Shown here: positions 2,579-44,074 of the stretch, piece after piece
How positions within the stretch are numbered: the first letter of the stretch is position 1
Layout of the letters: each line of letters begins with the position of its first letter
Assembly (NCBI GenBank): GCA_016196545.1
Contig: JACPXM010000007.1
Location: 1 to 44,074, forward strand
Direction of reading: 5' to 3'
Source: Candidatus Omnitrophota bacterium
Lineage (GTDB): Bacteria > Omnitrophota > Omnitrophia > Omnitrophales > Aquincolibacteriaceae
DNA length: 44,074 bases
Position numbers and translations under genes: made by a program
The notes under the pieces: model-generated
The model's database searches: none
Seen by the model: only the letters and a program-made list of their open reading frames with translations
What the model was told of the DNA's origin: nothing

Positions 2579-2592
2579 AGTTTCGTCTCCTT

Positions 2593-3978: not shown

Positions 3979-3993
3979 GTTTCTCCTTTTTTC

Positions 3994-4062: not shown

Positions 4063-4108
4063 GGTCGTTCTTCCCTTGTTAGGTTGATTTCCATCATTCC
4101 CTGCAACT

Positions 4109-6307: not shown

Positions 6308-6319
6308 TGGGCCCCTACC

Positions 6320-10805: not shown

Positions 10806-10835
10806 TTTAGGCTCCCTCGTTCCCTATGAGCTTTT

Positions 10836-10881
10836 AAAAGCAAAAAGGCGTTCAACGAATCTATCCGCTGAACGCCTTTGC
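10836..10881 (-). terminator. Intrinsic terminator in the nirB leader (attenuator)
   Basis: Minus strand GCAAAGGCGTTCAGCG-GATAGATT-CGTTGAACGCCTTTTTGCTTTT: long stem followed by U-tract. Confidence 0.85.
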
Positions 10882-10915
10882 TCAACTTTTGAACTGGAAC
10901 GCCGTTGCCCCAGTT
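10869..10915 (-). promoter_or_regulatory. ANTAR-binding dual-hairpin antiterminator element #1
   Basis: P1 AACTGGGGC-AACGGC-GTTCCAGTT and P2 TGAGC-AAAGGC-GTTCA, A1/G4 hexaloops; P2 overlaps the 5' arm of the terminator; adjacent to an ANTAR gene. Confidence 0.88.
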
Positions 10916-10953
10916 TTTCAAATTTTAAAAACGGGTTTTACTTGCTTGTTCGA

Positions 10954-25618: not shown

Positions 25619-27505
25619 TTATTTTCTCGGGCTTTGATAATAAACGTTACCCACAAAAAAGGGGCCAAGCGACTGCATATACCGTGCGGTTTGCTGGGTC
25701 TTTCGCATGGCTTCGACCAGCTTGGACAAATAATGAAGCTCGGGACCGACAAGGCCCAGCACAAATTCATTGTCCCGCGCGTCCAAGCCGTAACAGGCAA
25801 GGCGAAGGTCCGCGGCATAACCTGCCTGACCGAAATTGCGGCCAATCATAGCATGCTCCCACAAAATTTTATCCTGTTCCGCTTTGGAAAGGAGCGCGAA
25901 TTCTGGCTTGCGGCGAAGAGGATACCAAATCGCCCAGGGCCAATCAGGATTCAGGGCCGTGCGTCTCGGTTTCTGAAGCAGCCAGTCTTCCAGGGCCGCT
26001 TCCCGGCCTGCCGCATAAGTTCTTCCGAACATCGTTAGCTCGGCTTTAGGAGTCAAATTTTCAAAGGGTGGTTGCTGAAAAAGTTTTCGTACCTCACGAG
26101 TGAACATTTCGGGATTTTCCGAAAGAATCAAGGCGCCGACACCGTACGGATCATTCACATCCGCATAGAGCACTCCTTCAAGACCCGAGGCTTGAAAGGT
26201 TTTTGCCAAGGAATCCACATTCCTGCAGCCTGTAAAACATTGCAGCTGAAAATAAAGCCGCCTGTCCAGGGCTTGAATCACGCCCGATTTCGGCTGTCCG
26301 GTTTCACGCAAATCCCGTGAGTCCCCTTGATAATAGAGGTCGCGGTCCGGGACAATCTCCCAGCGCCTCGCAACTTCGGAAAGTTCCTGTGTCAACGGCC
26401 ATTGATCCGCCTGAGGTTTTCCTGAATATTGCGTCGTGGCTCCCTTTAAAGACATTGAATTCCGATTATCACCGATTTTTGTGATGGCCTCAACGATGTC
26501 GCGCGGCAACGGAGGTGCCAGGGAAAGTTTGACCAGCTCCTCAAGTTCGATTTCAACCGGTTTGGCGTCCGGTCCCGCCTCTTGAACCAAGGTCGGGATC
26601 ACGCAATCCACAGCAGGCTGAGCGAGCGTCCAGCGCGAGGCAAGTTGCAAAAGCGTCATCGGAAATTCGCGCGCGGTTTCACGCATTTTCTCTGCCTTCG
26701 GAAGCGCAGTTTCAATCCAGCCCTCGGGCCGAAAGGCGCGATGATCCTGACGGCTGAGTTTATGGCCCGGTTTTAAATCGCCGTGAAAGATGCCGCCAGA
26801 GTCCACGACACGCGCGATGACTTTGACTGCAAATTTTTCCGCGGCAGGAAGCGAGAGCATTCCAGGCCACGGCTCCAGTGGATTTAAAATAATCATGGCC
26901 CAATCGATTAAATCATGAAATTTTTCAAAACATTGAATGAGATCCAACGCAAAACCGTTGGCCGGACCCGGGGCAAGGCCGAGTCGATGCGTAATCCCCT
27001 GTTTTTTGAGCGATTCCAGGCCTTTCCAAACGGCCTCGCCCGTATATCCCGTAAAGTCGGGATTATGAAGAAGCAGCAAGTCAAAATAGGCCGTACCCAG
27101 TCTTTCAAGGGATTTTCCGGAGGCCATCGCAAGAAAATTTGCGTATTCATTTTCAGGACGAAGATTTGGGTCCGTAAAACGCGGAAAACCTTTTTCTGCC
27201 TGGCGCTTTCCTTTGTAGAAATCATGTCCAATGAGTCCAATAAGGCAATAACTTGAGCGCGGATAACCGCCCAGGGCTTTTCCCATCAACTTATCCGCTT
27301 CCCCCTCACCGTAAACATCGGCGGACATAAACGTGCGAATGCCACTTTCATAAGCACGTTGGATGAGCCTTAGGAGCCGCAATTCGCCGATATCTTCGCC
27401 GAAATTCATGAAATGGCCGCCAGACCAGATGCCGAAGGCGGCTTCACCCGGCTCAAGGCCTTTGATTTCAGTTTTCTGAGAAATGTTTTTTAACTGGGTA
27501 GGCAT
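25619..27505 (-). CDS. Aldo/keto reductase fused to a chlorite-dismutase / coproheme-decarboxylase (Cld/ChdC) family domain
   Basis: N-terminal ADVYGEG..D, SLERLGT.YFDLLLLHNPD, QLA.RW.L AKR motifs; C-terminal WYPLRR...EHAMIGR...YGLD...MRKT...GPFFVG. Confidence 0.8.
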   Translation of the reverse strand: MPTQLKNISQKTEIKGLEPGEAAFGIWSGGHFMNFGEDIGELRLLRLIQRAYESGIRTFMSADVYGEGEADKLMGKALGGYPRSSYCLIGLIGHDFYKGKRQAEKGFPRFTDPNLRPENEYANFLAMASGKSLERLGTAYFDLLLLHNPDFTGYTGEAVWKGLESLKKQGITHRLGLAPGPANGFALDLIQCFEKFHDLIDWAMIILNPLEPWPGMLSLPAAEKFAVKVIARVVDSGGIFHGDLKPGHKLSRQDHRAFRPEGWIETALPKAEKMRETAREFPMTLLQLASRWTLAQPAVDCVIPTLVQEAGPDAKPVEIELEELVKLSLAPPLPRDIVEAITKIGDNRNSMSLKGATTQYSGKPQADQWPLTQELSEVARRWEIVPDRDLYYQGDSRDLRETGQPKSGVIQALDRRLYFQLQCFTGCRNVDSLAKTFQASGLEGVLYADVNDPYGVGALILSENPEMFTREVRKLFQQPPFENLTPKAELTMFGRTYAAGREAALEDWLLQKPRRTALNPDWPWAIWYPLRRKPEFALLSKAEQDKILWEHAMIGRNFGQAGYAADLRLACYGLDARDNEFVLGLVGPELHYLSKLVEAMRKTQQTARYMQSLGPFFVGNVYYQSPRK

Positions 27506-28349: not shown

Positions 28350-29189
28350 TTAAGCCACCGGGTTGGGATTTTGGGCCACCTCCAGCCCCGAGTACACAAG
28401 CCACGGGGTTTTGTAATCCAGCGATTGATGATGCCGCTGCAAGTTGTAGAAATCGAAGTATTCTTTGAGCCCCGCCTCAGCGTCCGGAATTGTTTCATAG
28501 CCTTTCAGGTAAACATTTTCGTATTTAACGCTGCGCCACAATCTTTCCACAAAAATGTTGTCCAGCGCGCGGCCGCGGCCGTCCATACTGATTTTGATGC
28601 CACGATTCAAAAGCACTCGCGTGAATTCCTCGCTCGTGAACTGGCTGCCCTGGTCCGTGTTGAAAATCTCTGGTGTCGCATACCCAAGCGCCTCTTTCAA
28701 AGCTTCCACGCAAAAATCGCTGGTTAGCGTGTTAGAAATTTTCCAAGCGAGCACATACCGGCTTTTCCAATCCATCACGGCCGCCAAATACACGAATCCC
28801 TGCCGAAGCTTGATGTAGGTAATATCCATGCTCCAGACTTGGTTGGTGCGATTGACATTCACTCCGCGGAGCAAATACGGATATACCGGATGACCGGGAT
28901 GCGGCTTTGAGGTGTTTCTCTTGGGAAATATCGCCTCAAGGCCCATCAAACGCATCAACCGGCCCGCGCGTTTGCGGCCCACAAAAGACCCGCGGCTTTT
29001 GAGCTCACGCGACATTCTTCGGGCACCGTAAAACGGCCACTTCGTGTAAATCTCGTCGATCAGATTCATCACCGCCTGATCTTCGGGACTTACCGGCATC
29101 GGCTCGTAATAAAAACCAGAGCGGCTGCAAAAAAGCAGCTCACACTGACGCCTCACACTCACAGGAGATGATTCCTCACGCTCAATCAA
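28350..29189 (-). CDS. IS3 transposase OrfB (DDE domain)
   Basis: WSMDITYI, NTDQGSQFTS, DNIFVERLWRSVKYE. Confidence 0.95.
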   Translation of the reverse strand: MIEREESSPVSVRRQCELLFCSRSGFYYEPMPVSPEDQAVMNLIDEIYTKWPFYGARRMSRELKSRGSFVGRKRAGRLMRLMGLEAIFPKRNTSKPHPGHPVYPYLLRGVNVNRTNQVWSMDITYIKLRQGFVYLAAVMDWKSRYVLAWKISNTLTSDFCVEALKEALGYATPEIFNTDQGSQFTSEEFTRVLLNRGIKISMDGRGRALDNIFVERLWRSVKYENVYLKGYETIPDAEAGLKEYFDFYNLQRHHQSLDYKTPWLVYSGLEVAQNPNPVA

Positions 29190-29209
29190 AGCACGCCTCT
29201 CGTCCAGAC

Positions 29210-29503
29210 TCAGATGTTTAATTTTTTTTTGAGCCAGTTGTTTTCCACCTGCATCCGGCCCACGTTTTTGTAAAGATCCTCGATCAACTCTTTTTGGTCC
29301 TTCATCTTTTCGGCTCCGCCGGAAGGACTTGAGAAAAGCTCGGCCAGCCGGTCCTTGACCACGGCTTTCCAGGTGTTGATCTGCGAGACGTGCACTTCGT
29401 ATTCGGCGGCAAGCTCGGCCATTGTTTTGTCGCCCCTCAACGCCGCCAGAGCCACTTTCGCTTTAAATTCATCCGGAAATTTCTTGCGCATTTGGACCTC
29501 CAT
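29210..29503 (-). CDS. IS3 transposase OrfA (HTH)
   Basis: EFKAKVAL.AL....T.AELA..YEVH..QI..WK; ends WLKKK at the frameshift site. Confidence 0.93.
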   Translation of the reverse strand: MEVQMRKKFPDEFKAKVALAALRGDKTMAELAAEYEVHVSQINTWKAVVKDRLAELFSSPSGGAEKMKDQKELIEDLYKNVGRMQVENNWLKKKLNI

Positions 29504-29567
29504 TTATTGGGCCTGATTATATCTAACTTCAGGCTACTTTTTGGTCCAGTTTTCCGGGGCCACTATA

Positions 29568-30422
29568 GTCAATATACCTGACTTCGACACTTTTCATATC
29601 GGAGAATTTGCCTTTCTCTCTTACTTGATAGACAATTTTCACGGTCTTAAAAGGCGGCTTAGTGAATTGCGGAAGAGACCCATTTTTTTGAATATGCGAC
29701 ATAGCAAGATCGACTTGGTATCGTTTCGTAGAAACATCAACCATGTCATGCAGAAGAAAGATAACCATCCAAATCAAAAAAAATCCATAAACTGTTCTTT
29801 TATCCCAGCTCTTTAAAATGTAACCGTCATTTCCATTAATTCGCTCCGCTTGCTTATAAGCATCAATAGAAGCCCAGAGTATTATCCCTGTGACAAAAGG
29901 AAAACCAATCGATATTGGTAATATTAGAAGTTTTCGAGAAGAAGACCCTATCATAGTCAAAAGGGAAGAAATGGAAAATAGAAGCAAATATCCAAAACCC
30001 TTTAATTTCTGCGAATTATAAAATTGCCCTACGCCGGGAAACAGTACGGACAGAAAGACGGCCAAAAAGGGTTCTTTCCCTCGCTTCGGTATTTGAAAAG
30101 AGTGTTTCTTATTGTACTTTTTAGTAGTGGCATGAGCATCCACCAATACGTAAATCCAAAAAATTAGACCTGCGTAGCTTAAAACCCGGGCAGCTATTTT
30201 TAGATTGGGCAATGTAACAAGTTCAACAAACGGTCTCCAAGTTATGACAAACAATAAGGGGATTTCCAATAAAATCCCAAGAAGAATAAAAACCAAGCCT
30301 TTAATTTTCTTTCCACCGTAAATTTGACCCATTCCGGGGAAAATTTGGGAAAGCACAACCGCCAGCCATGGTTCTTTCCCGACTGCACCTTCTCTAGAAA
30401 AAATAAAGGATCGGGTATGCAT
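29568..30422 (-). pseudogene. N-terminal part of a membrane protein with two tandem 'P.LA..LS..FPG.GQ.Y' repeats, interrupted by IS3
   Basis: KEPWLAVVLSQIFPGMGQIY / KEPFLAVFLSVLFPGVGQFY; the ORF reads into the IS end (YSGPG = inverted repeat) and stops at 29529. Confidence 0.75.
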
Positions 30423-30431
30423 AAGTTAAAC

Positions 30432-30761
30432 CTAGAGAATTTTTTTAATCTCTATAGCAAGATCGGGGAGCTTATTTTTAATAACATCCCAAATAATCTC
30501 GGTGTCGATCCCAAAATATTCGTGAATAAGAATATCCCGAAGACCGGCTATTTTCTTCCACTCAACAGACGGATATTTTGTTTGAATTTCTTTGGGGATT
30601 TTTTTGACCGCTTCACCGATAATTTCCAGATTGCGGACAACGGCGTCAAGGGTTTTAAGATCGCTGGAAAATTGCTCCCTGGTTAGGCTGGAGGTATAAG
30701 TTTGGATTCGAGAAGCGGCTTCGAGAATATCGTCCAAATAGACTTTATAATCACGCGGCAT
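30432..30761 (-). CDS. HEPN (DUF86/HepT-like) RNase toxin
   Basis: YL.DILEA, DAVVRNLEIIGEA, RDILIHEY (Rx4H); start ATG 30761 overlaps the MNT gene end. Confidence 0.9.
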   Translation of the reverse strand: MPRDYKVYLDDILEAASRIQTYTSSLTREQFSSDLKTLDAVVRNLEIIGEAVKKIPKEIQTKYPSVEWKKIAGLRDILIHEYFGIDTEIIWDVIKNKLPDLAIEIKKIL

Positions 30762-31041
30762 CAACAAGATCCTGAAGAATTCGAGTCTTAAGGCGGGGCT
30801 TAATGGCACTGAATAAAACAAGGTCCACACGGCAGCCAAACAAATCCTCAAGATAATGCTTCAAATTCATGTAGGAGTCAAAAGTCTTTGGCTCCAGCTC
30901 AACGGCAAAGTCCAAATCACTGGAGACGTTTTGTTTGCCACGCACAAAGGATCCGAAAAGCCCCAAACGCTTGACCCCTAATTTTCGAATGTCTGTCTGA
31001 TGATCCCGAATGGTTTTTAAAACTGATTCCTTATCTTGCAT
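30751..31041 (-). CDS. Minimal nucleotidyltransferase antitoxin (MntA-like)
   Basis: LFGSFVRG....SDLD, L..LFG..VDLV; RBS AAGGAGG. Confidence 0.9.
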   Translation of the reverse strand: MQDKESVLKTIRDHQTDIRKLGVKRLGLFGSFVRGKQNVSSDLDFAVELEPKTFDSYMNLKHYLEDLFGCRVDLVLFSAIKPRLKTRILQDLVDAA

Positions 31042-33661: not shown

Positions 33662-34039
33662 TCAGGCGGCTTGAGGACGCATCGCTTTCACGATCGCTTC
33701 TTGGAGATCTTCCATCGTCACGGGCTTCATCAAAACTATATCCGCTTGAGGAGCCGTATCTTCCGTTATGGTTCCGGAAAGCATGATCACGGGCAATTTA
33801 GGATTCAATTTTTTGATCCGTAGGACGAGTTCATCTCCCGTCATGAAGGGAAGCGCGCGGTCCGCGATGATCAAATCATAATTCCCTCTATTCCCTTGAA
33901 ATTTTTCGAAGGCTTCAAGGCCCGTATCTGCGGTTTCCACTTTATGGCCGCCGCGCTCCAGAAACATCACGATGATGTCACGCACATGCGGATTGTCCTC
34001 CACATAAAGAATCCGGTGTTTCTCGCTCCCAGGGACCAT
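33662..34039 (-). CDS. Single-domain response regulator (CheY-like receiver)
   Basis: ILYVEDN, LIIAD..LP, IMLSG, KP; start ATG 34039 just after the kinase stop. Confidence 0.85.
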   Translation of the reverse strand: MVPGSEKHRILYVEDNPHVRDIIVMFLERGGHKVETADTGLEAFEKFQGNRGNYDLIIADRALPFMTGDELVLRIKKLNPKLPVIMLSGTITEDTAPQADIVLMKPVTMEDLQEAIVKAMRPQAA

Positions 34040-34043
34040 CGCT

Positions 34044-34892
34044 TTAGGAACTTTCTCTTTCTCGATCGTCCGATCGAGAAAATGAAATTGAAAAGGTTGT
34101 CCCTTTATTTTTTTCGCTTTGAATAAGCACGGACCCTCCATGCCTTTGAATTACACCGTAGACAACAGAAAGTCCCAGTCCCGAACCGCTATCCCCTTTG
34201 GTCGTAAAAAAAGGTTCCCAGCATCGCCTTTTCACTTCTTCATCCATTCCGATACCTTGGTCGCAAACTTCAAGCACAACTTCGTACGCATTGGCATAAG
34301 TCCTAAGCATCAATTCCCCACCTTGGGGCATAGCATCCACGGCATTAAAGATAAGATTGGTAAGGACTTCACGGAGCTGGACGTCGTCGCCTTCAATCAA
34401 GGGAATATCCCCCAGCTCCTTTCGAACGGTGATCTGCGCTCCCTTAACGAGCGCCTGACTTTTCCATTTAGGCTGCGTTAAGGAGATCATCTCTTCAATC
34501 ATGGGATTTAAATGAACCGACGTAAAGGGTTCGTTTTGCTCCCGGGTGTAGAAAAAATCCCGAAGCCTCTTGACAATCCCTGCGGCGTGGCGCGCAGCGG
34601 CATTCATGATCTGCAAAAATTGAAGCAGCGTTTTGCGATCTTCACGCGCCTGGGGATCCTTTAAAAGAAGCTCGCTATAACCCAAAATCGGCGACAGCGC
34701 ATTATTGAAATCGTGGACAATACCGCTTGCCATTTGGCCGAGGGCACGAAGCCGCTCCTGCTGAACAAGCTGGTATTGTGTCTTACGGAGTTCTTCAAGT
34801 GCCTTTTCAAGCTGTTGGGTTCTTTCCGATATTTTTTTTTCGAATTCGGCCTTGACCTTTTCAACATTTTCTTGCGATCCTGAAAAACTCAT
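34044..34892 (-). CDS. Cytoplasmic histidine kinase without a sensor domain
   Basis: Coiled coil, H-box GIVHDFNNAL, NLIFNAVDAM, DQGIGM, PFFTTK, GSGLGLS; RBS AAGGAAGG. Confidence 0.9.
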   Translation of the reverse strand: MSFSGSQENVEKVKAEFEKKISERTQQLEKALEELRKTQYQLVQQERLRALGQMASGIVHDFNNALSPILGYSELLLKDPQAREDRKTLLQFLQIMNAAARHAAGIVKRLRDFFYTREQNEPFTSVHLNPMIEEMISLTQPKWKSQALVKGAQITVRKELGDIPLIEGDDVQLREVLTNLIFNAVDAMPQGGELMLRTYANAYEVVLEVCDQGIGMDEEVKRRCWEPFFTTKGDSGSGLGLSVVYGVIQRHGGSVLIQSEKNKGTTFSISFSRSDDRERESS

Positions 34893-34933
34893 AGCTTTCC
34901 TTCCTTGACACACCTTAACTTAATGTTCTGTAG

Positions 34934-34948
34934 TCAATTTTTGTGCCA
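34934..34948 (-). promoter_or_regulatory. Possible sigma54 promoter
   Basis: TGGCAC-AAAAA-TTGA about 42 nt upstream of the kinase start; -12 box is TTGA instead of TTGC. Confidence 0.5.
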
Positions 34949-35034: not shown

Positions 35035-36789
35035 TCAAACCAATGAGGCATTTCTAGGTTGAAATTCATTTTTTAATTTTTGCGGTTGAGAGACGGGTAA
35101 ATCAACCAAAAAAAGCGTGCCTTTGTCCGCCCTGCTGATGACGGAAATATTTCCTGCATGATTTTCCACAATTTTTTTTGCAATGGCCAGGCCCAGCCCC
35201 ATGCCGCCGTGTTTGGTGGTAAAAAAGGGTTTAAATATCTCATGAACTTGATGCGCGGGAATACCGGAACCGGTATCGCGAACTGAAATACGCACCTGCG
35301 AAATTTCGGAATTACAATCGGATTTGAGCAACAAGATTCCCCCTTGGGGCATGGCTTGAATCGCATTTTGAATCAGATTTTCAAAGAGCTCGTACAATTG
35401 ATCGCGATCCCCTTCAACTCCAGGACAATACGGTACCGTTTCCACCTTGAAAACGATCCCTAAGCGACCGGCAGTTTCCGCGTAGCGTTCCCGCAGCGAT
35501 TCAAAAATAGTTTCCAAACTTAATTCCTCGAGGTCTGATTTTTTAGGAGCTGCGATTTGCGACAGGCTATTGAAAATCTTCTCCAAATTTTCAATCGCTG
35601 CTGAAAATTCTTTTTCAAAGCGCTGGATAAAAATTGGATCCGTCTTACGCTCTGGAAGAAGCTGGGAAAAGGTCTTAAGCGCTACAATGGAATTTTTAAA
35701 CTTGTGGGAAATGGTGGTTGCGGCCGCGCCAATAGCCGCCAAATGTTCCCGTTCGCGAGCCCTCTTTAAACGCCGGCTCATTTGCTTGAACCGCAAAAAA
35801 AGCCGACCCAACTCATCGGAGGATTTGGGAGGAATTTCGAAATCAAAATCGCCAACCGCGACGCGCCGGCTCCAGGCTTGTAATTCCCGAACAGGCTGAA
35901 CCATCATTTTTGCAAGTCGGAAACTGACCAAAATAGAAAGAATCAAGGAAACAAAAATAACAGACCAAATGAGAAATTTCATAGGGCGCATGAATTCATA
36001 AGCCTCTCGAGTCTCAATCTGAAGACCCACAAATAAGGGCAAAGGGCCTTTCACGGGCGCATAGGAAACCAAGTTATCGTTTTTTCTCCACGTTCTCTCG
36101 TGAAAAATTTCTTGGGTGGGTAAAACCGTATTTTTTAAAACAAGTCTGCGGTCCGGATGAGCCACCAAAAGACCTTCTTTTGTCACCAAAAAAGCTCGGC
36201 CGGTACGGCCTATTTGAATACCGTCCACGATTTCCCAAAGTCCTCTCAGATTCACTTGAGCCATCAACACTCCCGCAATCTCCCCTTTGAATTGATAAGG
36301 AAAGGCCACGGAAAAATGCGGCAGATAATTATCGCTGATATAAACCGAGGATACAGAGGTACGGCCGTGTCGCGCTTCCCGGAAAATTTTTTCACGGTTG
36401 TATTTCTTTTTAGGATACCCAGGATTGGAGGAAGCAATTTCCTCGCCTTTTAAATTTAAGGAAAGAATTTCTTCGAAAAAAGGGTATTCCAGCGACAATT
36501 CCACCAAAAGGGTTTCCTGGTCCCATGCACTTGACCCCGTTCTCCCCAGAAGTTGGCCTGCGGTTTTTAAAAGTTCTACAGGCCGCGCTATAAATAAAGA
36601 GATTTCCCGCGCCGCACGGACAGCAATAGCCTGATGACTTTCCTGGATGTTGGCCTTTAGAACACGCGCCGAAATTTGATTGAGCGTGATCCCTAAAAGG
36701 GAAAGCAATCCGATCACTAGAAGGCAGATGACAAGCGCCAGTTTGACCGCAATTTTTTGAGGTATTAATTTTCTGAGAAACTGAATCAT
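35035..36789 (-). CDS. Membrane sensor histidine kinase (TM - Cache-like - TM - HAMP - HisKA - HATPase) with atypical H-box
   Basis: Two TMs around a periplasmic region with G.AFLV...G.LVAHPD; HAMP DELGRL; H-box SHKFKNS; NAIQAM, DTGSGI, PFFTTK, GLGL. Confidence 0.88.
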   Translation of the reverse strand: MIQFLRKLIPQKIAVKLALVICLLVIGLLSLLGITLNQISARVLKANIQESHQAIAVRAAREISLFIARPVELLKTAGQLLGRTGSSAWDQETLLVELSLEYPFFEEILSLNLKGEEIASSNPGYPKKKYNREKIFREARHGRTSVSSVYISDNYLPHFSVAFPYQFKGEIAGVLMAQVNLRGLWEIVDGIQIGRTGRAFLVTKEGLLVAHPDRRLVLKNTVLPTQEIFHERTWRKNDNLVSYAPVKGPLPLFVGLQIETREAYEFMRPMKFLIWSVIFVSLILSILVSFRLAKMMVQPVRELQAWSRRVAVGDFDFEIPPKSSDELGRLFLRFKQMSRRLKRAREREHLAAIGAAATTISHKFKNSIVALKTFSQLLPERKTDPIFIQRFEKEFSAAIENLEKIFNSLSQIAAPKKSDLEELSLETIFESLRERYAETAGRLGIVFKVETVPYCPGVEGDRDQLYELFENLIQNAIQAMPQGGILLLKSDCNSEISQVRISVRDTGSGIPAHQVHEIFKPFFTTKHGGMGLGLAIAKKIVENHAGNISVISRADKGTLFLVDLPVSQPQKLKNEFQPRNASLV

Positions 36790-36801
36790 AAAGGGTTTTT
36801 A

Positions 36802-36816
36802 TCAAAAAGCATGCCA
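36802..36816 (-). promoter_or_regulatory. Possible sigma54 promoter
   Basis: TGGCAT-GCTTT-TTGA 13 nt upstream of ATG 36789. Confidence 0.4.
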
Positions 36817-36847
36817 AAAAAATGGCCGCGGCGCTTATGCCGCGGCC
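36816..36847 (-). terminator. Intrinsic terminator after the radical SAM gene
   Basis: GGCCGCGGC-ATAAGC-GCCGCGGCC followed by ATTTTTTT on the minus strand. Confidence 0.85.
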
Positions 36848-36881
36848 TATATTACTCTTTAAATGGAATCGGGGAAAGTTC

Positions 36882-38255
36882 TTAAACGGTGAGGGCGGGC
36901 TGCTTTTCTCGCTCCCTTTTCTTGGCCATCAGCTGCTCGTATTTGATTTTAATGTAATCGTGAATTGTTTTATCGAAGAAATCCCTTTCACAAAAGACAT
37001 TTTTGTAGCTTCCAGTTTGAAGTTCCGCATGATAATTACACCCGCCCGCACAAAAAGGCACGTATTGGCAATCCTGGCATTTGCCCTTCCACTCGACAAG
37101 GTCAAACGACATGAAATCCTTATAGCGATCGTTCAGTTTTAGATCGGAAACATTCCCGCAAGATTTATCATAATGCCCCACCATGGCAGGACATTTAAAA
37201 ATCACGCCGTCGGGATCAATAATGACTTGGTGTTCGCCCGATTTGAAGTGGCATACGCCTCCCCCGTCGAGAGACCTTGAAGTGGCAAAACCGCGTCGCA
37301 TGAGCTCCTTTTTAATCTGAATCATTTTTTCACCATGGCCTGGGTCGCAGGCATAAGTGGCAACCGCTTGAGAGTCATGCGGCATGGGATCGCGACGTTC
37401 GGTAATGGGCTTGAAATCAATCATTGCGATTTTTTCTTTTAAGCCTTCGGCTTCAAAAAAATCTAAAAGTTTGTAAAGGCTTTCGTAACTATGGGTGTTG
37501 AAATTGCTCGCCAAAATGACTTTGGTTTTATGCGCCACGGCCTTGATATTCCGTATGAGAATGTCAAAACTCCCTTTTCCGCTGATAAAAGGACGGTATT
37601 GGTCGTGTTGCTCTTTATCCCCGTCCAGGGTAATCCGAAGGCTTTTAAGCCCCCAGCCATTGAGCCGATCCACTAAAGCCTCTGTCACAAGAGATCCATT
37701 GGTAATAATATTGAATTCAAAATGCCAGGGGGTCGTGGCGGTCCACTCATGCATTTCGCGAGCAATGTATTCCAACATCGGGACATTCAAAAGGGGTTCG
37801 CCTCCGTAGAAAACAATTTCTATTTTTTCCGGATTGACCTCCATAGCTTTGTTTTTTAACCATAACACGATTTCCTGGGCCTTTTCTTGACTCATGAACC
37901 TTTTCTGCTCTTTCACCTTGCCTTCGAAGCAATAAGGACAGGCAAAATTACAAAAATAAGTGGTCAGAACATAGGCCTCCAGTTTTTTCGAATTGTAACG
38001 GATCGTTTCGAACCAATCTCGCATAATGTCGAGTTCATCAGCATCATCGCGCAACGTAATCCCCATTTCCTCAAGCTTGGTAAGAATGGGACGCGCCTCT
38101 TCAGCGACAGCGGTAACCGCTACGGGCATTTCGCGGAGCAGGGACCGTATGGCATCGTTGAGAACCAGCAGAGCCTGCGTGCGGGTATTGTAGGCTAAAT
38201 GTTTTCCAGGTTGGGGATAATCATCGACAATAATGGTGAACTGAGAAATTTTCAT
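36882..38255 (-). CDS. Radical SAM/SPASM peptide maturase with N-terminal extension (probable RRE)
   Basis: CNFACPYC, FYGGEPLLN, ITNG, ITLDG; SPASM C...DPDG.IFKCP...C..C....FC.GGC...C; ~90-aa N-terminal domain (AYNTRT...LEEMGI). Confidence 0.92.
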   Translation of the reverse strand: MKISQFTIIVDDYPQPGKHLAYNTRTQALLVLNDAIRSLLREMPVAVTAVAEEARPILTKLEEMGITLRDDADELDIMRDWFETIRYNSKKLEAYVLTTYFCNFACPYCFEGKVKEQKRFMSQEKAQEIVLWLKNKAMEVNPEKIEIVFYGGEPLLNVPMLEYIAREMHEWTATTPWHFEFNIITNGSLVTEALVDRLNGWGLKSLRITLDGDKEQHDQYRPFISGKGSFDILIRNIKAVAHKTKVILASNFNTHSYESLYKLLDFFEAEGLKEKIAMIDFKPITERRDPMPHDSQAVATYACDPGHGEKMIQIKKELMRRGFATSRSLDGGGVCHFKSGEHQVIIDPDGVIFKCPAMVGHYDKSCGNVSDLKLNDRYKDFMSFDLVEWKGKCQDCQYVPFCAGGCNYHAELQTGSYKNVFCERDFFDKTIHDYIKIKYEQLMAKKREREKQPALTV

Positions 38256-38304
38256 AAGGAACGCTCCAATTTTTTAGACGCGTGGGAGGATTTATTAATA
38301 TTCC

Positions 38305-38332
38305 AAACGGGCTGCGAATAAGCAGCCCGTTT
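38305..38332 (-). terminator. Stable hairpin between precursor and maturase (weak terminator or mRNA stabiliser)
   Basis: AAACGGGCTGC-TTATTC-GCAGCCCGTTT, starting 7-8 nt after the peptide stop; only 3 U follow. Confidence 0.7.
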
Positions 38333-38339
38333 TCTTCAT

Positions 38340-38438
38340 CTACTCTGGGAATCCAACAAACCAAATATCCGACACACAACAGTTAGTGACAATTCCTTTC
38401 GCATCTTTTGCAGTGTCAATAACCACGATATCTTCCAT
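38340..38438 (-). CDS. 32-aa putative RiPP precursor MEDIVVIDTAKDAKGIVTNCCVSDIWFVGFPE
   Basis: Strong SD AAAGGGGGTGAT just before ATG 38438; sits in the gap between the SBP stop and the rSAM gene; leader/core composition. Confidence 0.85.
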   Translation of the reverse strand: MEDIVVIDTAKDAKGIVTNCCVSDIWFVGFPE

Positions 38439-38463
38439 CCCATCACCCCCTTTCCACTCAGAT

Positions 38464-40011
38464 TTACTCTTGCTTATATAATTTTCTAAGAAGATAAAAT
38501 GGGATGAAGGGACCGAAAAAATTATCCGCAGGAATAATATCCTTGGAGGAGGCGTGAAACGAGTAGGGAATATAAAGAAAAACAGCGGGAATATCCTTCG
38601 CAATCGTTTCCTGCAATTGATGATAAGTGATTTTCCGCTCCTCCCGGTCATTCATTCTTCGTGCCGCCTCAAAACCTTTTGAAACCTCCGGATTTTCATA
38701 ATTTCCCAAATTAAACGATCCCCCCGGAAAATAATGACTGACAACATCGGGATCCGGATCCATATTATTAAATGTCGTTAAGAAAATTTGGAAAGGAGCA
38801 TTTGGCTGATAGACTTGGGAATGAAGCTCCTTGTAATCGGAAAACGTATGAATTTTAAGAGAGATTCCGATTTCTTGAAGCTGCTGGCGAATCAGTTTGG
38901 CCATCCGCATCAAATGCTCGTTTTCTGAACTTACCAAAAGATTCAAGTCTAATCCCGAAACACCTTCCTCCTTGAGCAGCCTCGCGGCACTTTCTGCAGG
39001 ATGCCTCTGAACACGAATATTCGAAGAATAAGCCCAAGAGGCAGGGTGGAAGGGACCCTCAATCAGAATGCCCTGATCGCCTTCAAGCTTGTTCCGCATT
39101 TCATCACAGTTAATGGCCAAACGAATGGCTTCGCGAAGATTTCTTTTTTTTAACCGTTCATCCTTAAAATTAAATAAAAGCATATACCCGCCCGGAGCCA
39201 GTGAAGTAAAAACATGAAAGGAGGAATTCTCCCGAATTTCTTGAAAATCATCGCGGTCCAGATAAAAAACCAAATCTACATCTCCACGAAGAAAAGCGGA
39301 CCATACGTGCTTCTTTGAAGAAAATATCTGGACACTGACTTGATTCAAATAGGGCCTGCCTTCAAAATAATTTAAATACGCCCTGAGACGCATGGAACCA
39401 TTACTCTCCTCACCCTCAAAAATAAACGGGCCCGTCCCAATGGGTGATTTTGCAATGACATTTAAATCATCTTTCGTGTGAATCAATTGATTCTTGGGAA
39501 CAATGCTGACGCGCCATATTGAAACTAAAAAGGGGGAAAAAGGCTCTTTCAGTATGGCCTGAAAAACATAGCGTGAAGGAATCTTCCATTCTTTGACACG
39601 GTCAAACTGTTTTGAAAACGCGGGACTAATGTTTTTATCGCTCATAAGCCGGAAGCTATGCAATACATCCTCAGAGGTGCATTCCTGACCGTTGTGAAAC
39701 TTTACGCCGCTGCGCAGGTAAAAGGTATAGGTTAAACCATCCTTTGAAATTTCCCAACGTTGCGCCAAATCCGGTTCGAATTCTCCGGAGGGTGAAACTC
39801 GGACTAGTTTGTTAAAAATTAAATCCATCAAGGGCGCGGAAATGGTGTCGGTGACGTTAAACGGGTCGAGGGGTGCAGGCTTTTGATGTGTGCCTAAATA
39901 AAGGGTGCCTCCGTAGCGCGGCTTTGGCGACGAGACGGCGGAAGGCGCTGCATATGCGGGCTGCACGGCCGCTGAAGCAATCATGAGACCTGCCAACAAA
40001 ACCCCCTTCAC
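38464..40011 (-). CDS. Family-5 (Opp/Dpp/Nik-type) periplasmic solute-binding protein, no cognate permease nearby
   Basis: EPDLA.RW.IS.DG.TYTF.LR.GVKFHNG, PIGTGPF; signal peptide from GTG 40011 (MKGVLLAGLMIASAAVQPAYA). Confidence 0.88.
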   Translation of the reverse strand: MKGVLLAGLMIASAAVQPAYAAPSAVSSPKPRYGGTLYLGTHQKPAPLDPFNVTDTISAPLMDLIFNKLVRVSPSGEFEPDLAQRWEISKDGLTYTFYLRSGVKFHNGQECTSEDVLHSFRLMSDKNISPAFSKQFDRVKEWKIPSRYVFQAILKEPFSPFLVSIWRVSIVPKNQLIHTKDDLNVIAKSPIGTGPFIFEGEESNGSMRLRAYLNYFEGRPYLNQVSVQIFSSKKHVWSAFLRGDVDLVFYLDRDDFQEIRENSSFHVFTSLAPGGYMLLFNFKDERLKKRNLREAIRLAINCDEMRNKLEGDQGILIEGPFHPASWAYSSNIRVQRHPAESAARLLKEEGVSGLDLNLLVSSENEHLMRMAKLIRQQLQEIGISLKIHTFSDYKELHSQVYQPNAPFQIFLTTFNNMDPDPDVVSHYFPGGSFNLGNYENPEVSKGFEAARRMNDREERKITYHQLQETIAKDIPAVFLYIPYSFHASSKDIIPADNFFGPFIPFYLLRKLYKQE

Positions 40012-40058
40012 AGGGAAAAAAACCTTGGCATAAAAAGCACGAAATCCAAAGGGCGTTG

Positions 40059-40073
40059 GCAATGTCTGTGCCA
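40059..40073 (-). promoter_or_regulatory. sigma54 -24/-12 promoter of the SBP-precursor-rSAM operon
   Basis: TGGCAC-AGACA-TTGC, exact consensus TGGCAC-N5-TTGC. Confidence 0.85.
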
Positions 40074-40113
40074 TTGAATATTTTAAAAGAGCGCAATCAA
40101 TCATAACGTTGAA

Positions 40114-40126
40114 TAAAGCTTTGATT
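40114..40126 (-). promoter_or_regulatory. IHF-like binding site
   Basis: AATCAAAGCTTTA matches WATCAANNNNTTR and lies between the sigma54 promoter and the candidate enhancer. Confidence 0.55.
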
Positions 40127-40196
40127 TTAAAAGGAAAAATAATAAGACTAAGATAAATAACAAATCGAATCGAGGAAAATTAAAATCAAACACTCG

Positions 40197-40232
40197 TGCA
40201 CAATATTCGGGATTTGTCGAGACTCTTGTGCA
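40197..40232. promoter_or_regulatory. Candidate upstream activator (enhancer) sequence
   Basis: Inverted repeat TGCACAA-N22-TTGTGCA about 125-160 bp upstream of the -24 box; NtrC-like half-sites. Confidence 0.45.
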
Positions 40233-40235
40233 GGA

Positions 40236-42173
40236 TCAAAAACCATACTTCGCTCCGGCTTCAAAATTCCTTTCTGGATTAGGGTCCCGACTGCCGTCAA
40301 AGGAAAAGTCGTGATTGAAGAGGTTCTCCCCTTCGACAAATACGGAAAATCGGCCATACAGGATTTTGGGGAATTTAAGAACCGCCTTGCTATCAAAAAT
40401 GAATGCCTGATCCTTGGGATTCGTAAATCCCGCGTATTGAACCAAATCCGTATAACGACCAGCAAGATGGAGATTTAGAATCATTCCCCAGAATGCCTTG
40501 GAGTAATTGAGTTTAATGTCCTGAGTAAAGCGAGGCCGGCTTTGCAAGGGTCCGGCCGAACCCGGCTCTACGGCTAAGACATACATTGTGCCATAGGAAC
40601 CGGAAATTCCTTGCCAGGGGCCAAGCCCAATTTCGGTTTCGAAACCTGTTCGTCTTTCCTCATCAATATTGACGGGCTGCCTAAGGCCATCGGAGCGGAC
40701 AATGGTTTGAATGCTATCTTCGAGAAAAGTCTGAAAAAATACGGCTTTCCCGAGAATTCCATTACGGGGTTCGGTCTCAAAGCCAAAATTGTAGACAATG
40801 GCCTTCTCAGCCTCCAAATCGGGATTTGCAACAGTCGTCGCTGCGCTTAGATATCGATCCACTAAGGAAGGCGCATTAAACGCCCGTGAAACATTACCCC
40901 GTAACAAGCTCCTCCAAAAAGGCAGATGATAAACAAGCCCTGCACTTGGATCAAAATAGGTGCCGTAACTGTTGGTCGCATCGAGGCGGGATCCGAGTGT
41001 GGCATCCCAATTTTTCCAGGAAAGCTGATAATTGATAAAATAGCCTTGGCGCGTGCTTTCTTTATTGACATTAAACGGGCTCGTGGCTGCCCGGAAAACC
41101 GCGTCCCGGTATACTTCCACGCCGATATCAGCTCCCGTCACGAGGGTCTGGGATTCGGTGATGTCCCATATATTCTTCACAGAGGCTTCATGAATCATGC
41201 TGCGCGCCTTCGCAACTTGAAAAAAAGTGTAGCGCGGCAAAAGCAACGTATCGCGGCGGAAAGTTCTTTCCGATAATTTATAAAAAAATTCTGAATACAC
41301 ATTTCCGCCATGCTCCATCACAAGCCCTGCGCTGCCATAACGCGAATAGACCTTTCTTTTTGCAGAAAGATTCAAATCGGGCAAATCAAATTCGCTTACC
41401 TTAGAACCGGAGTATCCGAAGGATCCCTTTAGAGAAAGTCCTTCAATCCCGGGAATCGTAACTTCGCTTTTTAAAAATCCCCTCTTCTCCAGCTCATCGC
41501 TATTCGGACGAAAGCCCCCGGCCTCGGTATAACTTCCCATGCCGTAATAACCCAGAGGCCCGGCCGAGCCCCAAATTTCCCCTTTCTCACGCTGAGTGCC
41601 AAATTCTCCAAAGCTGAGAGTGGTTTCTCCCTTCGGCATCAAGGATTTTCCAACAGGCCTCGTAATAACGTTAATGACTCCGCCCATGGCCGAACCCCAA
41701 ACACTTGAGGACGCTCCCTTAATCACTTCGATTTTCTCCACAATTTCGAGTGGAATCTGAGACAAATCCGCAATGCCTCCCGTAGTGGTTGCATTAAAGG
41801 TAATGCCATCCACCATCACGCGCACTTCACGCGCCTTGGAGCCATAAATTTGAGCCGTGGCGTTTTGTCCAATGTGTCCGTCATCTTGAACCACAATGCC
41901 GTTAATCAATCCAAGTGCTTCATCCAAATCCTGAACGGGCCAGCGGTCAAGTTCTTCACGGGTCACCACCGTCACATGATCCGTCACTTGAGGAAGGGCT
42001 TGGAGGCTTCGTGTGGAACTAAAAAAGGAATCCTTAGAATACAGAAAATCCGACTGAGAGGATAAGACTTCCGAAGGCGGACTGGATAAAACGCGGCGAT
42101 CACTATGGGCCATGAGAGGAGGAATTAAAAGAAATAGGAGCGGGAGTGAAAAGAACAAAAACCGGTACATCAA
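40236..42173 (-). CDS. TonB-dependent outer-membrane receptor (BtuB/CirA-like size)
   Basis: Signal peptide; plug VTVVTREEL...VMVDG...IEVIKGASSSVWGSAMGGVINVIT; NPDLEAE; ENLFN...C-terminal YGF; start overlaps the activator stop. Confidence 0.92.
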   Translation of the reverse strand: MMYRFLFFSLPLLFLLIPPLMAHSDRRVLSSPPSEVLSSQSDFLYSKDSFFSSTRSLQALPQVTDHVTVVTREELDRWPVQDLDEALGLINGIVVQDDGHIGQNATAQIYGSKAREVRVMVDGITFNATTTGGIADLSQIPLEIVEKIEVIKGASSSVWGSAMGGVINVITRPVGKSLMPKGETTLSFGEFGTQREKGEIWGSAGPLGYYGMGSYTEAGGFRPNSDELEKRGFLKSEVTIPGIEGLSLKGSFGYSGSKVSEFDLPDLNLSAKRKVYSRYGSAGLVMEHGGNVYSEFFYKLSERTFRRDTLLLPRYTFFQVAKARSMIHEASVKNIWDITESQTLVTGADIGVEVYRDAVFRAATSPFNVNKESTRQGYFINYQLSWKNWDATLGSRLDATNSYGTYFDPSAGLVYHLPFWRSLLRGNVSRAFNAPSLVDRYLSAATTVANPDLEAEKAIVYNFGFETEPRNGILGKAVFFQTFLEDSIQTIVRSDGLRQPVNIDEERRTGFETEIGLGPWQGISGSYGTMYVLAVEPGSAGPLQSRPRFTQDIKLNYSKAFWGMILNLHLAGRYTDLVQYAGFTNPKDQAFIFDSKAVLKFPKILYGRFSVFVEGENLFNHDFSFDGSRDPNPERNFEAGAKYGF

Positions 42174-43570
42174 ACTAAGGATTTGTGATCGCTGGATTGC
42201 TTGAGCTGCTTTACATCGATTTGTAGCGCATCTAATTTAGCAAGGAGTGTATTCCGGTGAATGCCCAAAATCTCGGCGGCCTTACTCTGATTCCATTCAG
42301 AATATTCGAGGATATTTAAGATCACCTTGCGTTCATAATCATCCAAAATTTCCTTAAAGGAAAAAGGTTCACGGTATTCGGTAAACTCGCCTCGCGGCAC
42401 GGCTAAGTCGAGAGGTAAATGGGCCTTTTGGATGCAGGGTCCCTCCATTAAAACCACAGCCCGTTCCACAACATTTTTGAGCTCGCGGATATTACCGGGC
42501 CAGTTGTAATCCTGCAATGTCGATTTGGCCTCTTCAGAAAACCCGCTTGCGGGTTTGTTAAATTTTTTTGAAAATTGGCGCAAGTAATGCTCCGCTAAAA
42601 TCAAAATATCCCCTTGGCGATCCCGAAGCGGCGGCAAATGGATATGGACCACTTTTACGCGATAATAGAGGTCTTCACGAAACTGACCGGTTTCCACCAT
42701 TTTTCGCAAATTGCCATTGGTCGCTGCCACAATGCGAACATCAATCGGAAGAACCTTAATGCTACCCACCCTCTCAATTTCCTGCTCCTGAAGGACTCGC
42801 AGCAATTTTACCTGAAGGGTCTCCTTCATGGCTGAAATTTCATCGAGAAATAAAGTCCCGCCTTGGGCCATTTCAAACTTTCCAATTTTTCGCTCCAAGG
42901 CCCCCGTGAAAGCCCCCCGTTCATGCCCAAAGAGCTCGCTTTCCAGCAAATTTTCAGGAATGGCGCCGCAATTAATGGCTTTGAAGGGGCGGTTTTTTCG
43001 CGAGGACTGATAATGAATCGCTCGAGCCACGAGCTCTTTGCCCGTTCCACTTTCGCCGGTAATAAGGACAGTGCTGTCTGTCAAGGCAACCTTGGAAATT
43101 ATTTTTAGAATTTCCTTTAATTTCGGATCCCGGCCCACCATGGGATGGCTATCGTCGAGCTGCTGGACATCATCACGCAGGGAGACGATTTCTTCGGCCA
43201 TGGATTTTTTCTCAAGCACACGGCGGGTCATCAGAAGAATTTCGTCTTTATCGAAGGGTTTCGTAATGTAGTGAAACGCACCTAACTCCATGGCACGCAT
43301 GGCCGAACGCGCCTTGTCATCCGCCGTAAGCATGACCACGTCGACGGTAGGATCGAGGGCTTTGATTTGTCGCAATACTTCAAAACCATCGAGTTCCGGA
43401 AGAGTAATGTCGAGAAATACTAAATCGACGGGCTCAGACCTCAATCGCGAAAGGGCATCGCGGCCGTCCTTGGCAACTACCAGCTCAAAACTATCACCGA
43501 GTAATAAATCGAGGGAATCAACGGTCGGCTTTTCATCATCGACTATCAGAATTCGGCGCTTTTTTTTCAA
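42170..43570 (-). CDS. sigma54-dependent response regulator (NtrC/AtoC family: REC-AAA+-HTH)
   Basis: ILIVDDE, LD..LP, GESGTGKE, ESELFGHERGAFTGA, FLDEI, WPGNIREL, NQSKAAEILGIHRNTL. Confidence 0.95.
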   Translation of the reverse strand: MKKKRRILIVDDEKPTVDSLDLLLGDSFELVVAKDGRDALSRLRSEPVDLVFLDITLPELDGFEVLRQIKALDPTVDVVMLTADDKARSAMRAMELGAFHYITKPFDKDEILLMTRRVLEKKSMAEEIVSLRDDVQQLDDSHPMVGRDPKLKEILKIISKVALTDSTVLITGESGTGKELVARAIHYQSSRKNRPFKAINCGAIPENLLESELFGHERGAFTGALERKIGKFEMAQGGTLFLDEISAMKETLQVKLLRVLQEQEIERVGSIKVLPIDVRIVAATNGNLRKMVETGQFREDLYYRVKVVHIHLPPLRDRQGDILILAEHYLRQFSKKFNKPASGFSEEAKSTLQDYNWPGNIRELKNVVERAVVLMEGPCIQKAHLPLDLAVPRGEFTEYREPFSFKEILDDYERKVILNILEYSEWNQSKAAEILGIHRNTLLAKLDALQIDVKQLKQSSDHKSLV

Positions 43571-43667
43571 AGGGGGAGTGATCCTTTTCTGCTAGTTCGA
43601 ATTATCAATTAGGGCATCATCATAGAGGGACCTGGCAGTTAAGGCAATCTTATTTTTAGGAAGGCTG

Positions 43668-43742
43668 TCGGGGTGGAGTGATTTGAACACTCGACATCTT
43701 GCTCCCAAAGCAAGCGCTCTAGCCAGGCTGAGCTACACCCCG
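43668..43742 (-). tRNA. tRNA-Pro (TGG), CCA not encoded
   Basis: CGGGGTG-TAGCTCAGCCTGGCTAGAGC-G-CTTGC-TTTGGGA-GCAAG...GTTCAAATC...CACCCCG-A cloverleaf. Confidence 0.96.
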
Positions 43743-43755
43743 TTGAAGATTCTTT

Positions 43756-44074
43756 TTAAAAGATTGAACGCTCCTTATAAATACTGAGAATCAATCCAGC
43801 TGCCAAGGCACTCATCAAGAGGGAGGAGCCACCGTAGCTGATAAACGGCAGAGTGATTCCCGTAATGGGAACAAGGCCGATGCTCATGCCAATATTAATA
43901 AATACCTGTGTAAAAATCATGGCACAAATACCGGCCGCAATGAGCTTGGCTTTAATATCCGTCGTTTTTTCCATAACCAGAAACATGGAAGAAAATAAAA
44001 GGCCGTAGAGACCCAAAAGCAGAAGGGATCCCATATATCCCCATTCTTCCCCAATGACGCAGAAAATAAAATCA
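43756..44074 (-). CDS. RodA/FtsW (SEDS) family protein, 3' part only
   Basis: DFIFCVIGEEWG...INIGMSIGLVPITGITLPFISYGGSS. Confidence 0.92.
   Translation of the reverse strand, partial: DFIFCVIGEEWGYMGSLLLLGLYGLLFSSMFLVMEKTTDIKAKLIAAGICAMIFTQVFINIGMSIGLVPITGITLPFISYGGSSLLMSALAAGLILSIYKERSIF

Follow-up and report, generated by a model that had tools for sequence, protein, structure and literature searches.

A conserved Cys-Cys peptide gene beside a radical SAM/SPASM gene in Omnitrophota and its linkage to outer-membrane uptake and sensing genes

Gene organization of the locus

We analysed a 44,074-nucleotide stretch of DNA from a Candidatus Omnitrophota bacterium (assembly GCA_016196545.1, contig JACPXM010000007.1; hereafter the window), focusing on a 32-codon open reading frame (ORF) at 38340..38438 that lies directly before a gene of the radical S-adenosylmethionine (rSAM)/SPASM type and is a candidate precursor gene of a peptide made on the ribosome and modified post-translationally (RiPP). 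The peptide gene, its presumed maturase gene and the genes around them, which include one for a substrate-binding protein (SBP), are all encoded on the minus strand, with the following features in the order of transcription:

42170..43570, minus strand: NtrC-type sigma-54-dependent response regulator, the gene overlapping the receptor gene by 4 nt
40236..42173, minus strand: TonB-dependent outer-membrane receptor with Plug and barrel in Pfam, BtuB-sized
40058..40073, minus strand: sigma-54 promoter motif TGGCACAGACATTGCC, matching 10 of the 11 specified consensus bases
38464..40104, minus strand: SBP_bac_5 periplasmic binding protein, probable start GTG 40011
38443..38454, minus strand: Shine-Dalgarno (SD) site GAAAGGGGGTGA, 5 nt upstream of the peptide ATG
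38340..38438, minus strand: precursor peptide gene, 32 aa, from ATG 38438 to TAG 38342-38340
38305..38332, minus strand: 11-bp GC-rich hairpin, beginning 8 nt past the peptide stop, with no clear T-run
36882..38255, minus strand: rSAM/SPASM maturase, 457 aa, with PF04055 (66 bits) and Fer4_12
36824..36847, minus strand: intrinsic terminator-like hairpin (9 G-C pairs, then a T-run) at the end of the SBP-peptide-maturase unit
35035..36789, minus strand: dCache_1-HAMP histidine kinase, periplasmic sensor at about residues 37-271

Translation from ATG 38438 to the TAG codon gave MEDIVVIDTAKDAKGIVTNCCVSDIWFVGFPE. The gene is an internal start within a 103-aa ORF (38340-38651, minus strand) and enters the ORF list only as the tail of it; this longer ORF and the 3′-end of the SBP gene overlap in different frames. 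An initial annotation, made from the DNA letters, had picked the hidden frame out of this longer ORF, and both its sequence and its coordinates proved exact. The strong SD sequence that it had placed directly before the start was likewise confirmed, and the motif is kept in 13 of the 13 related loci examined, distant ones included. The peptide gene is single-copy in the assembly, and its product matched no family in NCBIfam or Pfam.

The maturase gene starts (38255) 84 nt past the peptide stop codon. Compared with shuffled sequences, the hairpin in this interval had a z of −4.2, and a hairpin of differing sequence was present at the equivalent position in 7 of 7 clade loci (z −1.6 to −4.2). 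It is likely a partial terminator or an RNA stabilizer that would set the precursor:maturase ratio. The only Rfam match in 36700-44074 was a tRNA-Pro; the interval separating the peptide gene from the rSAM gene contained no known RNA element.

The peptide is conserved in an invariant Cys-Cys core

By taking the DNA of relatives from genomes and metagenomes and listing the short ORFs upstream of rSAM, we found a 30-38-aa ORF of matching layout directly upstream of the rSAM gene in the six closest homologous loci fetched, of which L086, L085, L084 and L002 share 70-76% rSAM identity with the window and L004/L003 and L087 45-47%; L003 (genome G043, of the same order as the window genome) has the ORFs and peptide as in L004. 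A profile of six orthologous peptides, built with the window peptide excluded, retrieved the window frame with an E of 5e-11 as the sole match among 1279 stop-to-stop window frames, the next-best one having an E of 0.27. Pair-wise comparison with the L086 peptide gene revealed 9 identical, 11 synonymous and 13 non-synonymous codons, namely that 11 of the 24 changes are synonymous.

Searching 1.84 billion representative proteins with a profile, we then obtained 26 peptides of 30-51 aa with matching leader and core. Counting positions over these and the window peptide (n = 27, anchored on the first Cys), we found the first Cys in 27/27, the second Cys in 26/27, Ser at +3 in 19/27, Asp at +4 in 27/27, Ile or Val before the Trp in 26/27, Trp at +6 in 26/27 and Val or Ile at +8 in 25/27, with +2, +7, +9 and +10 being variable; thus, the invariant part is C-C-x-x-D-[IV]-W. 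In the window peptide, the leader covers about residues 1-19 (M-E-x-[IE]-[IV]-I-D-x-A-K; M-E-x-E-I-I-[ED]-x-A-K-x-A across the 27 peptides) and the core starts from C20 (C-C-x-S-D-[IV]-W), with C20, C21, D24 and W26 as the only invariant or nearly invariant residues. The conserved short ORF beside homologous rSAM genes that the initial annotation had looked to was therefore present, both at the six closest loci and among the 26 database peptides. Its CC...WFVGF core was sustained in part, as C20, C21 and W26 are invariant or nearly so and the FVGF tail after W26 is variable, and its cut between leader and core after G15 was arbitrary, because the conserved leader extends to about residue 19.

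In L089 and in relatives with a single Cys, the peptide gene sits downstream of the rSAM gene, which argues for a product gene and not an upstream regulatory ORF. Given its conservation, the 32-codon ORF is very probably a genuine RiPP precursor gene.

The single-Cys peptides are about 23-26 aa long and are encoded just downstream of rSAM in L008, L009, L010, L012, L015, L017, L031 and L042, loci that still hold the SBP_bac_5 and dCache kinase genes and have no Cys-Cys ORF. Their leader reads MK[LV]x[IV]VKKG, their tail is short and aromatic (for example ...TLYCVWYVS, ...TGCLSYFF) and 5-8 residues follow the Cys; they were picked by eye from matches to their own profile, which were weak (E 3.6e-4 to 0.19). 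As such peptides occur beside rSAM in SBP_bac_5/dCache loci, one Cys seems sufficient in part of the superfamily.

The maturase model has the fold of peptide-modifying SPASM enzymes

Alignment of 29 homologues showed no variation in the CX3CX2C motif at C102/C106/C109 or in C335, G350, C355, C393, C396, C402, C406 and C422 of the SPASM region, which form the seven-Cys motif C-x14-G-x4-C ... C-x2-C-x5-C-x3-C ... C. The AlphaFold2 model of the maturase had a per-residue confidence (pLDDT) of 84 and a predicted template-modelling score (pTM) of 0.83, and its N-terminus (residues 1-90, pLDDT 84-96) was folded into three strands and three helices, predicted to resemble a RiPP recognition element (RRE); no Pfam PqqD match was found in the protein. 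A Foldseek search against PDB returned the thioether-forming maturase 5wgg, which we take to be CteB, as the top match (E 1.6e-19, TM 0.70), in a full-length alignment of 471 columns at 19% identity, followed in order by 8vpo (TigE), SuiB, anSME and ChlB. The best PDB match by sequence profile was also 5wgg. Since the structural matches comprise 5wgg, 8vpo, SuiB, anSME and ChlB, the fold speaks for a peptide-modifying SPASM enzyme and does not fix its reaction.

About 30 close homologues (60-83% identity) and hundreds of more distant ones were detected, and the maturase was present in 3 of 61 related genomes, the window genome being one of them. A single-protein scan of genome contigs gave 73 pattern matches with 0 confirmed, and the scan was then run with the alignment. 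As a separate observation, the orthologous maturase of L002 (genome G007, 70% identical) has an in-frame TAA at codon 33 (L002:1597-1599), within the RRE-like domain, owing either to a nonsense mutation or to misassembly.

Receptor, binding protein and kinase genes are linked to the peptide-maturase pair

The SBP resembles the family 5 peptide, nickel and opine binding proteins. GTG 40011, which opens a typical Sec signal peptide (MKGVLLAGLMIASAAVQPAYA followed by AP, the cleavage site reading AYA/AP), is probably its true start. It is the sole SBP_bac_5 found in the assembly, which is 72% complete and in which three permease (BPD_transp_1) pairs were found, of the Ugp/Mal or Pst type; a permease of the Opp/Dpp type was found neither in this 72%-complete assembly nor in the 10 neighbourhoods scanned.

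The neighbouring genes were scanned by Pfam at 10 loci of the window lineage and 7 loci in or near the clade of geopeptide maturases (see below). The window lineage has the order [sigma-54 activator]-TonB receptor-SBP_bac_5-peptide-rSAM-[ABC exporter]-dCache/HAMP kinase, the bracketed genes not being in all loci; L086 keeps the regulator/receptor arrangement of the window, the ATP-binding cassette (ABC) exporter is present in L086, L004 and L087, and L089 keeps the content in a changed order (receptor-SBP-kinase-regulator-rSAM-peptide). The geopeptide clade has the order receptor-peptide-rSAM-ABC_sub_bind (PF04392)-kinase-LuxR-type regulator. SBP_bac_5 and ABC_sub_bind, two unrelated families, hence substitute for each other, both near a kinase gene, and the binding-protein gene stands directly beside the kinase gene in L016, L020, L033, L029 and L089. 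A second kinase and regulator of the window (34044-34913 and 33662-34141) are not conserved in L086.

A census was performed by tblastn with the window proteins as queries, and the fetched loci were split at an rSAM score of 140 bits. Among the 42 loci at or above this score, a TonB receptor was found in 25, a binding protein in 27 (19 SBP_bac_5 and 8 ABC_sub_bind), either of the two in 35, a dCache kinase sensor in 17 and a sigma-54 activator in 13; these counts include several short contigs and kin that are not independent, L003 and L004 being identical in sequence and L088 and L089 nearly so. The 101 weaker rSAM relatives yielded no receptor, one SBP_bac_5 and no dCache kinase.

In the Nitrospirota geopeptide locus L020, the TonB receptor is encoded in two pieces, one ORF for the Plug and one for the barrel (L020:3789-5775), with a group II intron reverse transcriptase about 1.4 kb upstream.

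A sigma-54 motif precedes the SBP-peptide-maturase genes

The sigma-54 promoter motif TGGCACAGACATTGCC sits inside the over-extended SBP ORF, 47 nt before GTG 40011. Motifs at the SBP start were also present in L086 and L084 (11/11) and in L005 (10/11), and motifs 58-70 nt before the peptide gene in L089 (9/11) and L011 (10/11). The genome has rpoN. Within the window alone they are not enriched, as counted below; the promoter argument rests on their conserved position.

Two weaker sigma-54-like motifs were noticed at 36801-36816 and 34933-34948 (minus strand), each with 2 mismatches and TTGA for TTGC; both lie 12-20 nt before kinase start codons, too near for a normal leader. In L086, downstream of the kinase, a sigma-54-like TGGCATACATATTGCT (10/11, L086:10973-10988) stands at the start of a ShlB/TpsB-type two-partner-secretion gene, which may be a target of the regulon.

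The binding protein is predicted to dock on the kinase sensor

Structure prediction placed the mature SBP on the periplasmic sensor domain of the kinase with a score of 0.63 (median of three runs), compared with 0.00 for the best of 3 controls. Out of 80 solved complexes 58 attain this mark, and so do 2 out of 110 mismatched pairs, a calibration that holds only roughly, since our own shallow alignments (11 + 10 rows) were used. The runs shared at least 94% of the contacts, with a pLDDT of at least 79 for the partner. The predicted interface is formed by helix 399-420 of the SBP and by residues 89-103, 121-125 and W185 of the kinase, taking in the conserved SSNPG loop and the invariant W185 of the latter.

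The locus is placed beside the geopeptide family

Of 74 NCBIfam families, the best model for the maturase was TIGR04280, the geopeptide rSAM maturase, and the second was CefB (209.5 bits); the PapB family NF047865 gave 141.4 bits, under its 340-bit cut-off. Six of six Nitrospirota/Geobacteraceae maturases tested scored 537-665 bits against TIGR04280, and 10 enzymes of the SBP_bac_5 lineage 251-339 bits. In a quick maximum-likelihood tree of 32 rows, from which L002 (internal stop), L003 and L088 (near-duplicates), L009 (Ns), partial matches and most weak rSAM relatives were omitted, the enzymes passing TIGR04280 formed one clade (5 rows, support 100), and the window maturase fell into its sister group (22 rows, support 95), in a clade of its own of 6 rows (support 98). 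The peptides of L087, L019, L006, L020 and L029 scored 13.7-19.4 bits against the geopeptide model TIGR04229, under its 30-bit cut-off, and hhalign aligned the clade peptides with the geopeptide-like ones at 82% probability (E 1.1e-5) over 22 columns spanning leader and Cys-Cys, a modest match.

As the maturase lies below the TIGR04280 cut-off and the peptide misses TIGR04229, the locus is, judged by sequence, an unnamed sister lineage of the geopeptide system, which itself is defined in silico, and stands outside the thresholds of that family. Being its sister, the system is not categorically new, but it has an invariant core of its own and relies on another binding protein, another sensor and another regulator. 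The two have in common a short peptide (about 30-36 aa) whose leader is of the [IV][IV]x[IVL][DK]xG type and whose Cys-Cys lies some 20 residues in, its gene adjacent to the rSAM/SPASM gene with TIGR04280 as best model, and a linked TonB receptor, permease-less periplasmic binding protein and kinase, a linkage known for geopeptides from our census and lying outside the NCBIfam definition. They differ in the binding protein (SBP_bac_5, PF00496, here, but ABC_sub_bind, PF04392, in geopeptide loci), in the regulator (sigma-54/NtrC-type versus LuxR/GerE-type), in the dCache sensor of the window kinase, and in the C-C-x-x-D-[IV]-W core of the window lineage with its invariant or nearly invariant Asp and Trp. 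No paper on the geopeptide system (TIGR04229/TIGR04280) was found in our literature search, nor a description of the window-type cassette, with subscription papers and supplements lying outside its scope; the accessible part of a study on Omnitrophota biosynthetic gene cluster expression in general (PMC9902471) does not contain the cassette.

A proposed peptide cross-linking and feedback circuit

The initial annotation had stated that the chemistry cannot be assigned from sequence, which still holds, with conservation having narrowed the candidate residues to C20, C21, D24 and W26. C20-X3-D24, invariant in 27/27 peptides, conforms to the PapB-type Cys-X3-Asp/Glu motif. PapB is reported to turn Cys-X3-Asp into a thioether from Cys-S to Asp-Cβ (PMC9413430) and to be able also to link Cys to a C-terminal residue (PMC12373016). 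Because C20-X3-D24 equals this motif, one or two Cys-derived thioethers are favoured, with D24, and perhaps W26 besides, as acceptors, and we consider the presence of at least one thioether in the product somewhat probable.

Putting these features together, we propose that the β-strand-prone leader (MExEIIDxAK) would be bound by the RRE-like N-terminal domain of the maturase, which would then cross-link C20-C21-x-x-D24-x-W26, most likely via one or two Cys-derived thioethers. The product may be exported by an ABC exporter as encoded in related loci, which has no counterpart at the window locus, and the dedicated TonB-dependent receptor would bring it back through the outer membrane. In the periplasm, the SBP_bac_5 protein would capture it and dock on the dCache sensor domain of the kinase, the kinase would phosphorylate the NtrC-type activator, and the activator would drive the sigma-54 promoter upstream of the SBP, precursor and maturase genes, the outcome being positive feedback in an autoinducer-like circuit. 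The pheromone-like role that the initial annotation had suggested thus gains contextual support from the TonB receptor, the permease-less SBP, the dCache kinase, and the sigma-54 activator with its promoter motif. For a sensing function, to which the conserved gene linkage, promoter motif and structure model point, we regard the case as evenly balanced; the whole chain from precursor through modification, re-import and sensing to feedback we hold to be slightly on the probable side. A more specific version, that this is an undescribed architecture of peptide quorum sensing in diderms, in which a bicyclic peptide (Cys-Asp and Cys-Trp) is re-imported via TonB, captured by an orphan SBP and sensed by a dCache kinase with sigma-54 self-amplification, the geopeptides of Geobacter and Nitrospira being a sister version with another binding protein and regulator, is offered tentatively and remains rather doubtful.

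Several observations weigh against the proposal. The product, its modification and its transcript are deduced here from genes, the Asp of the core is not conserved outside the window's clade, and the maturase fold also resembles makers of C-C links or cyclopropanes (SuiB, 8vpo). A look for expression data turned up 4 DNA runs from one groundwater study and no RNA record. With regard to traffic, neither an exporter nor a leader peptidase was found at the window locus, a dedicated exporter was not identified in the assembly either, where the protein closest to the L086 exporter shares only 35% identity with it, and, the genome being 72% complete, its missing remainder could hold an exporter or an Opp/Dpp permease. 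The docking score may come in part from likeness, since solved SBP-kinase complexes of other families exist. No sigma-54 motif was found in L004, L087 and L006, and sigma-54-like motifs (at most 2 mismatches) numbered 18 in the window versus a shuffle mean of 20.9. As for the geopeptide connection, the maturase scored 308.7 bits against a TIGR04280 cut-off of 400, neither the 32-aa peptide nor the 103-aa frame matched TIGR04229 even at an E of 10, and a profile of the distant geopeptide-like peptides failed to retrieve the window peptide; the link is based on the enzyme, on the layout and on a single hhalign match.

Alternative explanations

The genes next to the precursor would also suit a RiPP metallophore or scavenger, a Cys-Cys peptide that binds metal outside and returns via the TonB receptor and a NikA/Opp-family SBP, with the kinase reporting the loaded form. 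Methanobactin is taken up in such a way via MbnT and MbnE, the receptor and family-5 binding protein are here encoded beside precursor and maturase, the core has vicinal cysteines, and the top NCBIfam matches of the SBP are nickel and opine-metal binding proteins, although all under their cut-offs. Yet no Opp/Dpp/Nik-type permease was found in the 10 neighbourhoods scanned or the 72%-complete assembly, no metal regulator at the locus, and no MNIO/DUF692 enzyme in the Pfam scans of the locus and related neighbourhoods; moreover, the single-Cys relatives have just 5-8 residues after their Cys, and in the geopeptide clade the SBP is swapped for the unrelated PF04392 and the kinase gene stays near. 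A metallophore therefore appears unlikely. Less likely again is an antimicrobial or otherwise outward-acting RiPP, for which receptor, SBP and kinase would confer immunity on the producer or induction by competitor peptides: many rSAM thioether peptides are bacteriocins, and the patchy distribution (maturase in 3 of 61 related genomes) and the variable C-terminal tail would fit, but no linked immunity ABC transporter or protease was found, receptor, SBP and kinase co-occur with the peptide-maturase pair across phyla, and the sigma-54 motif precedes the producer genes themselves.

That the cross-linked peptide acts not as a signal but as a redox carrier or cofactor used inside the cell or in the periplasm seems quite improbable. 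Links from Cys to Asp and from Cys to Trp recall the small subunit of quinohemoprotein amine dehydrogenase (QHNDH), C, C, D and W are invariant or nearly so, and the maturase weakly matches TIGR03906, the QHNDH maturation rSAM (107 bits versus a cut-off of 453); however, neither dehydrogenase subunits nor a flavin monooxygenase are encoded at the locus, the peptide lacks a signal peptide, and the linkage is to uptake and sensing genes. Finally, a small ORF immediately upstream of rSAM and followed by a hairpin might be a regulatory upstream ORF or a chance ORF with no peptide product, a reading made very improbable indeed by conservation at the amino-acid level with synonymous changes, by one core motif common to 27 peptides, by the profile E given above and by the gene's place downstream of rSAM in other members.

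Comparison with known systems and significance

Returning to the proposed sensing circuit, its maturase shares with the ranthipeptide and sactipeptide maturases (5wgg, PapB) the architecture of RRE, rSAM and SPASM, the RRE being predicted here. 5wgg is its best fold and sequence match among solved structures, but at 19% identity, and the peptide has an invariant C-X3-D in its core, but only one, plus a second Cys and a nearly invariant Trp, the enzyme reaching 141 bits against the PapB family model with its cut-off of 340. The window type also differs from ranthipeptides in occurring in diderm bacteria with uptake and sensing genes, which ranthipeptide clusters, to our knowledge, do not carry.

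The LuxP-LuxQ-LuxO system of Vibrio senses its autoinducer through a periplasmic binding protein, which presents it to a kinase in control of a sigma-54 activator. The window resembles it in a permease-less binding protein beside a kinase with a tandem-PAS/Cache-type periplasmic sensor, in an NtrC-type sigma-54 activator and in the predicted docking of SBP and sensor; it differs in its ligand, which would be a peptide of ribosomal origin modified by an enzyme, in an SBP of family 5 and in a TonB receptor that belongs to the set, and the window proteins score under the cut-offs of the curated LuxO and LuxQ models. Methanobactin operons encode the precursor MbnA, the TonB receptor MbnT and the family-5 binding protein MbnE, and a RiPP precursor encoded with such a receptor and such a binding protein is likewise found here. 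The window differs by its rSAM/SPASM maturase, with no MbnB/MbnC-type domain at the locus or the 10 related neighbourhoods, by the lack of an oxazolone/thioamide-type precursor motif and of copper-related genes, and by a kinase and sigma-54 regulator in place of a sigma/anti-sigma pair.

Peptide autoinducers are textbook knowledge for Gram-positive bacteria, and diderms are thought to use mainly small diffusible molecules. If the proposal is true, the system would allow active peptide sensing gated by a receptor to be tested directly in diderms, and would provide the database-only geopeptide family, together with its unnamed sister lineage, with a first function. The candidate RiPP is spread over Omnitrophota, Planctomycetota, Spirochaetota, Nitrospirota and Geobacteraceae, usually tied to an outer-membrane importer, an orphan SBP and a kinase, and its C-C-x-x-D-x-W core is a compact, readily synthesized substrate for defining the maturase chemistry.

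Other features of the window

The module is flanked on one side by an IS3-type transposase (rve) and a HepT/MNT toxin-antitoxin pair (28350-31041) and on the other side by tRNA-Pro(TGG) at 43667-43742. It was also considered as a genomic island, for which there is no clear signal, because its GC content of 45-47% lies within the 40-51% found elsewhere. Away from the module, a 628-aa ORF (25619-27505, minus strand) combines an aldo/keto reductase with a C-terminal chlorite-dismutase-like domain in an unusual fusion, and a nitrate-assimilation-like cluster (1343-11667) encodes an MFS transporter, an alginate-export-type porin, a molybdopterin oxidoreductase, an Fe-S/DmsC-like protein, a Rieske protein, a NirB-type nitrite reductase and a GAF-ANTAR regulator.

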